Of a stretch of DNA of 45,436 nt, positions 1 through 3,000 are shown one piece after another; position 1 is the stretch's first letter, and each line of letters starts with the position of its first letter. The stretch is from IMG/VR virus record IMGVR_UViG_641736226_000030. One strand, written 5' to 3'. The position numbers are program-made. Origin of the DNA: a virus. Its lineage: Duplodnaviria > Heunggongvirae > Uroviricota > Caudoviricetes.

Positions 1-3000
1 ATGGACAACGACAAAATTGATCAACACAGCGACGAAATTGAAGTTGAGAGCGAAGAAAAAGAGCGTGGCAAAAAAATAGAAATAGATGAAGATCGACTCC
101 CCTCCCGGGCGATGGCAATTCATGAGCATATCCGCCAGGATGGTGAAAAAGAGCTGGAACGCGACGCAATGGCACTACTGTGGTCAGCCATTGCGGCGGG
201 TCTGTCGATGGGCGCTTCATTACTGGCAAAAGGGATATTTCATGTCGAACTGGAAGGTGTGCCGGGCAGCTTCTTGCTGGAGAATCTCGGTTATACCTTT
301 GGTTTTATTATCGTCATTATGGCCCGCCAGCAATTATTTACCGAAAACACCGTGACTGCGGTACTACCCGTCATGCAAAAACCGACAATGAGCAACGTTG
401 GCTTACTTATGCGGTTATGGGGCGTCGTGCTGCTGGGTAATATTCTCGGGACAGGTATTGCGGCGTGGGCATTTGAATATATGCCAATCTTCAATGAAGA
501 AACTCGCGATGCATTTGTCAAAATCGGCATGGATGTGATGAAGAACACCCCCAGCGAGATGTTTGCCAACGCGATCATTTCCGGCTGGCTGATCGCCACT
601 ATGGTATGGATGTTTCCTGCAGCGGGTGCGGCAAAGATTGTGGTGATTATATTGATGACCTGGCTTATTGCCCTGGGTGACACCACTCACATCGTTGTCG
701 GTTCTGTTGAAATCCTCTATCTGGTGTTTAACGGTACGCTGCACTGGAGCGATTTCATCTGGCCCTTCGCACTACCTACTTTAGCGGGGAACATCTGCGG
801 CGGCACCTTTATCTTCGCGTTAATGAGTCATGCACAGATCCGTAACGACATGAGCAACAAGCGCAAAGCAGAAGCACGCCAAAAAGCAGAACGTGCGGAA
901 AACATTAAGAAAAATGATAAAAACCCGGCATAAATGGCGAGGGTTTAAGCAATCGAGCGGCAGCGTACTTACCCCGCAGTCCATTAGCGGGTATACTCAT
1001 GCCGCATTGTCCTCTTAGTTAAATGGATATAATGAATATAAGTATTAAGTCATTGATTTAAATACAGAAAGTGGCGAAATAATCGTCATATCAGTACCCA
1101 TTTATGTACACACCCCGTTAAGCATGCCCCGCACTTCCGTACGGGGCATGTTCTTTACTCCACTCCCACTTTTTTGTTGTACTCGCGGTTAAACCGATCC
1201 ACGGCAATTTTCATATCCCGCTCAACCGATTTCACCATCGCCGACTGTTGCGCCAGACTGAGAGTACTGTCGGCGTAAATGGCATCACGCTGTTTACGCA
1301 AATCCTTCAGTCTCTTCCGGGTATCCTGCATAAGCCCGTTCATCGACAATTTTCCGTTGTTCTCGTCAATGAACGCCGTTCTTTCTGCACCGGTCAGACT
1401 CTTCAGCTCTGCGTGATACTGCGCAACCTCTGTCATCCGGTCGTACATCTTCTGCTGGTCAGCATACGGCATCACCTCACCTGAAATTTTCCCCAGGAAG
1501 GGCACCTGCTGCTCCGGTATATCAATACCGTTCAGCGATTTCACCGCCGCATCCGTGGTTTTGGAAATGAAGCGCCCTGTCCCTCCGGAGATATAGTCAA
1601 TCCAGTATTTCAGTGATTCCGGCGTGACATCCACCGCACCGGAACGGTACTGGCTGCCACCAGAGAACGCATTCAGCCAGGATGCAAACGCCTTGTACGC
1701 TTCTGGCGTTGAACGTCTTCCCAGCTGGCTGTCAGGTTTTGGTGTACCAAACGGCATGTTCTCCTGGTAAATCTGCGCCCCCATGAAGTTTTCGTTCATG
1801 GCAAGATTCGCAAACGGACGCAGAATTGTCGGTGCTGCATTTTTCAGCAATGCCCCGGACAGTGTTTCCGACGTTTCACTGCCCACAGGACTGAATGCCC
1901 CAAGCACACCACCAACAACATTACCGGCAGCACGTGAAGCGGTCAGGTCGCCCGCTGCCACCCCTTCGGCTGTGTGACCAAGCAGGAAGAAAACGTTGTA
2001 CCCGTAAGGCAGAGGAATACTCCAGTACTCTCCGGCCTTGCCCCCGAACACCGATTTCATAATGACGAGGTTACGCTCTTTCACATGAGACGGCACCTTG
2101 TCATACCAGTTAACCCCGTCATCATCCTCCCCCGCAACACTGCGGTTAAGCGAGCCAAGCAGATAACCCGCTCCCACAGCTGCAAGCGCGATTTTCTGCG
2201 GTACATTGAGATTCTTCCAGCGAAGGCGCTCCAGTAACGGCCCGTCGCCATTAAGATGTCCGAGCGTTCTCACCAGGTTTGCGGTCCCCTGAATGCTGGC
2301 GTTGGCGAACATGTACAGCGAGTTCATCAGCGCTCCCTGCTCACCACGACGGTTAAAGTTCACCGTCATGTTTTTGGCAAGAGACGCCGCCTGCTGGCGT
2401 GACAAACCGGCATCACGGGCGTGTTTATAGGCAGAAAGACGCAGAGCGTTTTCAACCGCCCCGTTGGCATCCTCGACAAGGTTAAGGAACGAATTCCATG
2501 CACCGATACTCTGGCCTTTCCATCCTCCCTTCGCCAGCGATACAAGGCGATCCATTTCCTTCTGCTGGCCTTCAAGGTCACCCATGTTAAACCAGCCGGT
2601 TTTACCTCCGTCCTCAACAAACTCTTTCCACACCTTCTGCCACTGTGCACCTTTTCCCGTGAGGGTTTTACCACGCAGACTGGCGTATACGGCTGACATG
2701 GCAGAACGGCTGTCTTTCACCACAGCCAGGGCGGATAAGTTATCCAGCCCTTTCAGTTTACCGTCGCTCCTTCCCTGCTCCGCCTTCAGGTTCATCACCG
2801 CCGTCTGCACGTCACGGATGAAGTTACTGACCAGGAATTCCGGGTTATACGACGTGTTCACCGTTGCCAGGAAGCGGTTAACTTTCCCCAGCGTACGAAC
2901 AAAGGCATTGCTGGTTTCCGGTCCCATATTCTTCATCGCACGCATCAGGCGCGGATCATGGAGTTTGATGTAGTACGTTTTGCCGTTCTTTTTGGTGGTG

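Follow-up and report, generated by a model that had tools for sequence, protein, structure and literature searches.

An Stx2a prophage junction at the 5′ end of argW and the candidate argW promoters at the two prophage ends

This study concerns the junction between chromosome and prophage in IMG/VR virus record IMGVR_UViG_641736226_000030, a stretch of 45,436 nucleotides that is referred to here as the window. The junction occupies 934-1154, between the host gene yfdC and the last late gene of the prophage, and it falls within argW, the gene for tRNA-Arg(CCU). The flanking yfdC gene lies at 1-933 on the plus strand as an open reading frame (ORF) that matches the Pfam family Form_Nir_trans and carries the name yfdC in the RefSeq annotation. 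A spacer of 75 nt separates it from the argW fragment. The attachment (att) core, O, is a 25-bp direct repeat of the prophage at 1008-1032 (plus strand), of which 1009-1032 are argW nt 1-24. Phage DNA begins at 1033, and the segment 1033-1117 (plus strand) is the P′ arm, phage DNA that is specific to the argW-type integration module. A GC-rich hairpin follows at 1121-1152, and the last late gene, an ORF of 2806 amino acids, extends over 1155-9575 on the minus strand (1155-9536 with the start chosen in RefSeq; stop codon 1155-1157). Because this terminal ORF carries the Pfam domains LPD38, LPD5, LPD1 and MuF_C, its product is a "large polyvalent" virion protein and the gene is not strictly a tail gene.

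The sequence at 1009-1032, GTCCTCTTAGTTAAATGGATATAA, is identical to nt 1-24 of argW in Escherichia coli K-12 (b2348), and it is the sole match within the 45-kb window when up to three mismatches are allowed; none is expected by chance. Relative to K-12, the spacer between yfdC and argW differs at one base, and the divergence is complete from argW nt 25 onward. The part of the tRNA gene that is kept comprises the 5′ acceptor strand, nt 8-9, the 5′ strand of the D-stem, the D-loop and three of the four nucleotides of the 3′ strand of the D-stem. ARAGORN called no tRNA at the 1009-1032 junction, and an Rfam search of window positions 800-1400 at E ≤ 1 returned chance-level matches only, none of them tRNA-like. 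A first-pass annotation of this DNA had reported the first 24 nt of argW at 1009-1032 followed by phage DNA, with no intact tRNA at this end; both statements are borne out, although the second may mislead, as it is the opposite prophage end that has the regenerated tRNA gene. Many complete genomes of O157:H7, including TW14359, EC4115 and strain 272, contain the segment 800-1400 at 100% identity, and of 5,426 complete E. coli genomes, 208 cover at least 80% of it.

The far end of the prophage was read in TW14359 and in strain 272, whose far-end stretches supply the L001 and the L043 coordinates, respectively. The 25-bp repeat TGTCCTCTTAGTTAAATGGATATAA, which corresponds to argW nt −1 to 24, is present at both prophage ends in copies approximately 63-65 kb apart (window 1008-1032, L001 19895-19919, L043 20034-20058), and neither flank extends the homology. 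In TW14359, the gene of a divergent tyrosine integrase, int, lies at L001 18531-19700 on the minus strand, and ARAGORN identifies an intact tRNA-Arg(CCT) at L001 19896-19970, 195 bp from the start of int. Downstream of this regenerated argW come intS and genes for P22-like ejection proteins. Strain 272 is the best-matching complete genome, and window positions 38000-45436 are 100% identical to the prophage of PA2/VT2phi_272 type that is carried by this strain and others. In strain 272, int is found approximately 18 kb beyond the end of the window; the integrase protein is the same (WP_001218308.1), and the attR junction sequence is identical, with the same spacer, core and intact argW. TW14359 matches the window at the junction and in the late region and does not match it in the early region. 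Collinearity of the window with TW14359 was accordingly rejected: at the expected offset, 555 of 2065 bases of the early region were identical, and BLAST gave no match. An xis-like gene of 183 nt overlaps the 3′ end of int in the L001, L005 and L006 stretches. In the PA2-type prophage of strain 272, genes for an Eco57I-like methylase and a BsuBI/PstI-family restriction endonuclease adjoin the repressor gene (L043 820-3239), a short way past the point where the window stops; both are absent from the TW14359-type prophage at argW.

An attP of 825 nt was predicted in silico by joining the int-side arm, the core and the phage arm of the window. In five phage records, among them those of the free phages phi345, phi346, phi349 and P27, this sequence is contiguous at 100%, and the P′ arm of free phages is contiguous with the int-side arm. 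Phage 86 and Lyz12581Vzw carry the predicted attP at 94-95% identity. The empty site, attB, is seen in K-12, where yfdC and argW are uninterrupted, and the junction is also present in the K-12-type laboratory lysogen WG5::PA2. In GenBank, record HQ424691 (VT2phi_272) annotates a 25-bp "attL" that overlaps the 5′ end of tRNA-Arg, and LC616031, one of the LC6160xx records of Stx2a phages, annotates a 24-bp "duplication due to insertion"; the att at argW has been stated as 24 bp (bioRxiv 2024.03.06.583675). The same junction, at 100% identity, is known from Stx2a prophages that occupy argW in O157:H7 clade 8 and O145:H28 (VT2phi_272 HQ424691, PA2, TW14359; PMC9997748, PMC8309913, bioRxiv 2024.03.06.583675). 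The present prophage differs from them in an IS629 copy at a position where 0 of the 5,426 complete genomes carries an insertion sequence (IS), a difference that is irrelevant to the junction. The locus thus presents the features of an attL/attR pair, namely a repeat at both ends, a regenerated tRNA gene, an adjacent tyrosine recombinase gene, a contiguous attP and an empty attB. We consider, with a probability of about 0.93, that 934-1154 is the yfdC-side junction (B-O-P′, or "attL" in lambda nomenclature) of a short-tailed Stx2a prophage of PA2/VT2phi_272 type that was inserted by a Phi24B-type integrase. Sequence comparison, along with published assays of the 97%-identical Phi24B integrase, has shown that attP and attB share a 24-bp identity segment, argW nt 1-24. 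Recombination within this segment leaves the probable native argW promoter, argW nt 1-24 and phage DNA at the window end. At the far end, phage DNA is followed by the 24 nt and these by the remainder of argW, so that an intact tRNA-Arg(CCU) lies approximately 195 bp from the divergent int.

According to the first-pass annotation, this end could instead have arisen by deletion or by recombination with an older argW-resident element. The truncation of argW would then be secondary, due to a deletion or to homologous recombination of the phage with that element, and not to an integrase acting on a 5′ core. Such an element is indeed present, intS and the P22-like ejection-protein genes lying directly downstream of the tRNA gene, and module exchange is well documented for Stx2a phages at argW. 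However, a direct repeat of precisely 25 bp marks both limits of the prophage and its flanks have no further homology, and the same junction recurs in 208 complete genomes and in WG5::PA2. The IntS-type element has a 16-nt core of its own at the argW 3′ end; this resident sits on the 3′ side and is uninvolved. Because free phages have the predicted attP as a contiguous sequence, the attB of K-12 is empty and the att is annotated in GenBank, we reject an origin by deletion or recombination; it is effectively refuted and retains a negligible probability. One point does count against insertion by the Phi24B-type integrase, namely that the far end was read in close relatives (TW14359 and strain 272) and not in the window's own molecule. 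The other suggestion of the first-pass annotation, an attachment core in the 5′ half of argW, is the one that stands, given a 25-bp repeat of argW nt −1 to 24 and an intact argW at the integrase end. The rest of argW and the direct repeats, for which it had proposed to inspect the other end, were found in TW14359 and strain 272, and K-12 provides the unoccupied yfdC-argW locus for comparison, which is an empty site. It had allowed that an intact argW with a matching repeat would indicate standard 3′-end integration; the other end does have both, but the repeat consists of the 5′ nucleotides −1 to 24 of argW. It was right to place the integrase end outside the window, whereas its description of the present end as the tail-gene end does not strictly fit a terminal ORF for a large polyvalent protein. 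Its statement that the site is unusual is fair with respect to the classical 3′-side sublocations, but the att had already been annotated in GenBank and described in the literature.

The integrase contains the Pfam domains Phage_integrase and Arm-DNA-bind_3 and shares 379 of 389 residues (97%) with Int-Phi24B of phage Phi24B (vB_EcoP_24B; Fogg et al. 2007, 2011; Mohaisen et al. 2020, PMC7581858). In addition to this orthology, the two phages have nearly identical P arms and an identical core of 24 bp, and they have in common the chromosomal site and an inverted int with its own promoter; the rest of the genome differs, being of PA2/VT2phi_272 type here. The attP of Phi24B holds argW nt 1-24 exactly, with C at position −1. 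This position is T in the present prophage, and therefore its repeat is 25 bp and not 24 bp. The primary site of Phi24B was described as "250 bp upstream of intS", with a 24-bp central crossover segment that has been examined by experiment (PMC7581858), and in K-12 the core is located 213-236 bp upstream of intS. According to published work on Phi24B (PMC3064807, PMC7581858), integration is Int-dependent and excision needs a separate Xis, int is transcribed in inverted orientation from a promoter of its own, the minimal attP measures 350-427 bp, and recombination by Int-Phi24B is independent of integration host factor (IHF) and works in a himA mutant. The shortest working attB comprises 93 bp (49 + 24 + 20), and the minimum lies between 62 and 93 bp (PMC7581858). 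The words "argW" and "tRNA" do not occur in the two papers (PMC3064807 and PMC7581858). Near int, three copies of TGTAC (cCTGTACACA, TTCTGTACTCAAT and aTGTACgCA; L001 19713-19752, columns 23-62 of alignment A4) are invariant across 21 diverged spacers between int and the tRNA gene; they may be arm-type Int sites, part of the int promoter region, or both. A conserved minus-strand TTGCCA/TTGCTA-18-CAGAAT overlaps these copies, where the Phi24B promoter pInt, mapped by rapid amplification of cDNA ends (RACE), would fall. In the P′ arm, AATCAATGACTTA at 1046-1058 (minus strand) agrees perfectly with the IHF consensus WATCAANNNNTTR, and the match is retained, as AATCAATGGATTG, in the divergent arm of phage 86 type. 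This match deserves attention because Int-Phi24B has been reported not to need IHF.

Williams reportedly recognized in 2002 the anticodon loop, the T-loop and the asymmetric 3′ end as the classical tRNA sublocations. In a preprint (bioRxiv 10.1101/2020.11.02.365908), the sites of classical tRNA-targeting integrases are likewise given as the anticodon loop, the T-loop and the 3′ end, and their elements as lying downstream of the tRNA. In the present case, identity extends over nt (−1)1-24 and the element is upstream of the regenerated tRNA, which departs from the classical 3′-side sublocation. The argW junction belongs to the D-loop, or 5′-end, sublocation, as described for arg2 of Klebsiella. 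At arg2A of Klebsiella pneumoniae, integrases of clade I.d target the 5′ end, or D-loop (bioRxiv 10.1101/2020.11.02.365908); the element is also upstream of the tRNA, and some strains have elements at both ends of the tDNA, whereas the species and the cargo differ, the comparison being one of target sites. The IntS integrases of KplE1/CPS-53, HK620 and Sf6 type are tyrosine integrases that use the same tRNA gene, argW, but they act on a 16-nt core, CTGCAGGGGACACCAT, at its 3′ end, with int downstream of the tRNA. Since the two systems act at opposite ends of argW, the IntS type at the 3′ end and the present integrase at the 5′ D-arm, both can occupy the gene simultaneously. Double occupancy of this kind is observed at L001 19896-21289 and at L043 20035-21428, where the Stx2a phage is at nt 1-24 and an IntS-type P22-like remnant is at the 3′ end. 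The dusA-associated integrases (PMC4482086) similarly enter the 5′ end of their target gene, for which the element supplies a replacement 5′ end with putative −35 and −10 elements upstream, although the target is protein-coding and the integrases belong to another family. Earlier work had already documented the att, its integrase and the 5′/D-loop sublocation, as well as the fact that argW is occupied in clade 8 O157:H7; the comparative extension to 20 relatives in other Enterobacterales is new here.

For this extension, one genome per species was scanned, which gave 33 loci that encode relatives of the integrase, 20 of them beside a tRNA gene. In each of these 20 loci (57-91% identity) the tRNA gene is tRNA-Arg(CCT), in the same divergent arrangement and with its 5′ end approximately 195 bp from the start of int. 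The genera represented include Erwinia, Enterobacter, Pantoea, Brenneria, Xenorhabdus, Providencia, Tatumella, Salmonella, Morganella, Rosenbergiella, Proteus, Limnobaculum and Rouxiella, among others. Relatives at 63% identity or less are mostly without a tRNA nearby. An integrase clade thus has the divergent arrangement of int and tRNA-Arg as a stable trait. The block of identity begins at tRNA nt 1 and ends at nt 24, inside the 3′ strand of the D-stem, and position −1 is variable among the elements. By analogy with other integrases that target tRNA genes, the D-loop or its immediate surroundings are the probable place of strand exchange: the halves of the D-stem (GTTA...TAAC) would act as inverted core-type sites and the 8-nt D-loop as the overlap region, and such a crossover would mirror the anticodon-loop and T-loop sublocations of those integrases. 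The D-loop sequence AATGGATAT is directly followed by an imperfect tandem copy, AATGAATAT, so that the pair spans 1022-1039 (plus strand) across the boundary between core and P′ arm. This copy may be due to chance or may be part of an attP core-type binding site.

Upstream of the core, the sequence TTACCC-17-TATACT at 969-997 (plus strand), followed by a GC-rich discriminator, was read as a candidate for the native argW promoter. The candidate is identical in the empty site of K-12, and in the minimal attB of Phi24B it is part of the B arm of 49 bp (PMC7581858). It was not called in a consensus promoter scan because its −35 hexamer matches at only three of six positions. Since it ends 11 nt before the tRNA, it is left at the window junction; 969-997 is probably the native argW promoter, split from the tRNA body. 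For the integrase end, the 21 int-tRNA spacers were aligned and invariant columns were sought between reference positions 80 and 205. The only such columns are A132, T137 T138 G139, G159, T161 A162 and T166, which compose the pattern TTG-N21-G-N-TA-NN-(A)T in a poorly conserved spacer. At L001 19827-19856, in the phage P arm, the pattern reads TTGATT-18-TATTAT and faces the tRNA. In a position-weight scan, the aligned TTGnnn-18-TAnnAT site was the best plus-strand sigma-70-like site in 21 of the 21 sequences; its spacer is always 18 bp, and its −10 element ends 38-39 nt before tRNA nt 1. The hexamers, their spacing, the orientation and the conservation are those of a predicted sigma-70 promoter. 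On this sequence evidence, the regenerated argW, its own promoter having been lost, is probably transcribed from the sigma-70 promoter of the P arm.

The hairpin that follows the P′ arm contains a perfect 9-bp inverted repeat (catgccccg/cggggcatg at 1123-1131/1142-1150), real as had been noted earlier, which is situated just past the last phage ORF, 4 nt from its stop codon. Its folding energy is −21 kcal/mol (z = −4.8). The plus strand has the T-tract TTCTTTACT and the tail UUCUUUACU; the minus strand has no U-tract. A core of 7 GC-rich base pairs is kept in the phage 86 type and in the 933W type. In phages that integrate at wrbA (933W, Stx2 I/II, Min27, P13374 and TL-2011c), homology to the window starts only at 1118 or 1126. 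Because this homology starts at the hairpin, the hairpin is the first element of the late module and a mosaic boundary outside the argW att module. The hairpin is a probable terminator or 3′-end structure that probably marks the 3′ end of the late transcript. Since its T-tract is on the plus strand, transcripts that run into the phage from the orphaned argW promoter may also end there. Pairing of 1108-1118 with 1141-1151 as an anti-terminator was rejected, as the segment is not conserved in attP of phage 86 type.

Combined, these predictions would make the integrase clade a mirror image of the ordinary tRNA integrases: crossover would occur in the D-arm, the 5′ end of tRNA-Arg(CCU) would be rebuilt, a conserved sigma-70 promoter would drive the gene in every lysogen, and the host promoter would yield a junction RNA of approximately 150 nt, made of the argW 5′ fragment and the P′ arm, that ends at the hairpin. 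We hold this proposal only tentatively, at slightly less than even odds. Several observations weigh against its component predictions. The position of the crossover in the D-loop is drawn by analogy only. Single P-arm sites are modest when compared with shuffled sequences (the fraction of shuffles scoring as high is 0.02-0.64), and the evidence therefore consists in positional conservation. The hairpin at 1123-1150 was not called in a consensus terminator scan, a T-tract follows it on a single strand, and its outer pairs show no compensatory changes, that is, no covariation, between the phage 86 and 933W types. Finally, the IHF consensus WATCAANNNNTTR, taken as its reverse complement, is also matched by A132 and the invariant TTGAT.

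The last observation leads to another explanation of the TTGAT...TAnnAT block, in which it is the protein-binding architecture of attP (IHF-like, Xis or arm-type Int sites) and argW is silent or read from elsewhere. The fit of A132-N4-TTGAT(W) to the reverse-complemented consensus agrees with such a role, as do the density of protein-binding sites that is normal in attP arms and the large size of the minimal Phi24B attP. The gene argW is also probably dispensable, given that AGG can be read by tRNA-Arg(UCU). However, an IHF site leaves unexplained the invariant G-N-TA-NN-AT at a fixed distance of 18 bp, and also why tRNA nt 1 is always 39 nt away, as it is in 21 of the 21 loci, and the candidate arm-type repeats, the three copies of TGTAC, are located elsewhere, near int. 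Because Int-Phi24B is IHF-independent and functional in the himA mutant, the IHF reading of TTGAT is kept as a rival only, and we regard a block built for protein binding as unlikely, albeit with an appreciable share of the probability. The hairpin could similarly have a function in the attachment site, for instance in binding or bending, instead of forming a transcript end, as it lies within approximately 120 bp of the core and inside the span of the minimal Phi24B attP. This role is distinctly improbable, since the hairpin and the end of the giant ORF are conserved in phages of 933W type, which have another integrase and another site (wrbA), and since the GC-rich stem starts 4 nt past a stop codon.

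The window has further features away from the junction. Three phage tRNA genes at 38522-38773 (minus strand) are located upstream of stx2AB at 37191-38431 (minus strand), in which the Stx2A ORF, 37472-38431, matches the Pfam family RIP; the third tRNA is tRNA-Met(CAT) according to ARAGORN and tRNA-Ile according to RefSeq, the usual case of an ileZ-like gene. The IS629/IS1203 copy mentioned above has 1310 bp (16387-17696, plus strand) and the terminal repeats TGAACCGCCCCGG[A/G]; it interrupts a tail-associated gene, and its orfA and orfB are at 16441-16767 and 16764-17654. In the closest genomes, such as strain 272, the IS is approximately 1.2 kb away in the opposite orientation, and a second copy is present between the antirepressor and lysozyme genes, where the window has none. 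Moron genes, named according to the annotation of strain 272, encode a Hok/Gef family toxin (12800-12940, minus strand), an Ail/Lom family outer-membrane protein (13173-13907, minus strand) and Bor (31547-31840, plus strand).

When yfdC is followed by the 24-nt fragment of argW, this reliably marks the site as occupied by a phage with a Phi24B-type integrase, and in O157:H7 clade 8 this phage is typically an Stx2a phage. Annotating the fragment as a damaged tRNA gene would be a mistake, since the functional copy is present approximately 63-65 kb away. The occupancy of argW by two elements is also explained, with one at the 5′ D-arm and the other, of IntS type, at the 3′ end. In a single respect the results go slightly beyond published descriptions, which is the promoter-like element that faces the regenerated tRNA and is conserved in 21 of 21 loci from many genera. 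This element suggests that integration at the 5′ end of a tRNA gene is viable because the incoming element brings its own promoter. If the clade does act as a mirror image of ordinary tRNA integrases, the 93-bp attB needed by Phi24B would reflect features of a tRNA gene and its promoter, which are not discussed in PMC3064807 and PMC7581858, and lysogeny by Stx2a phages and by related elements of Enterobacterales would rewire the expression of the tRNA for the rare codon AGG.

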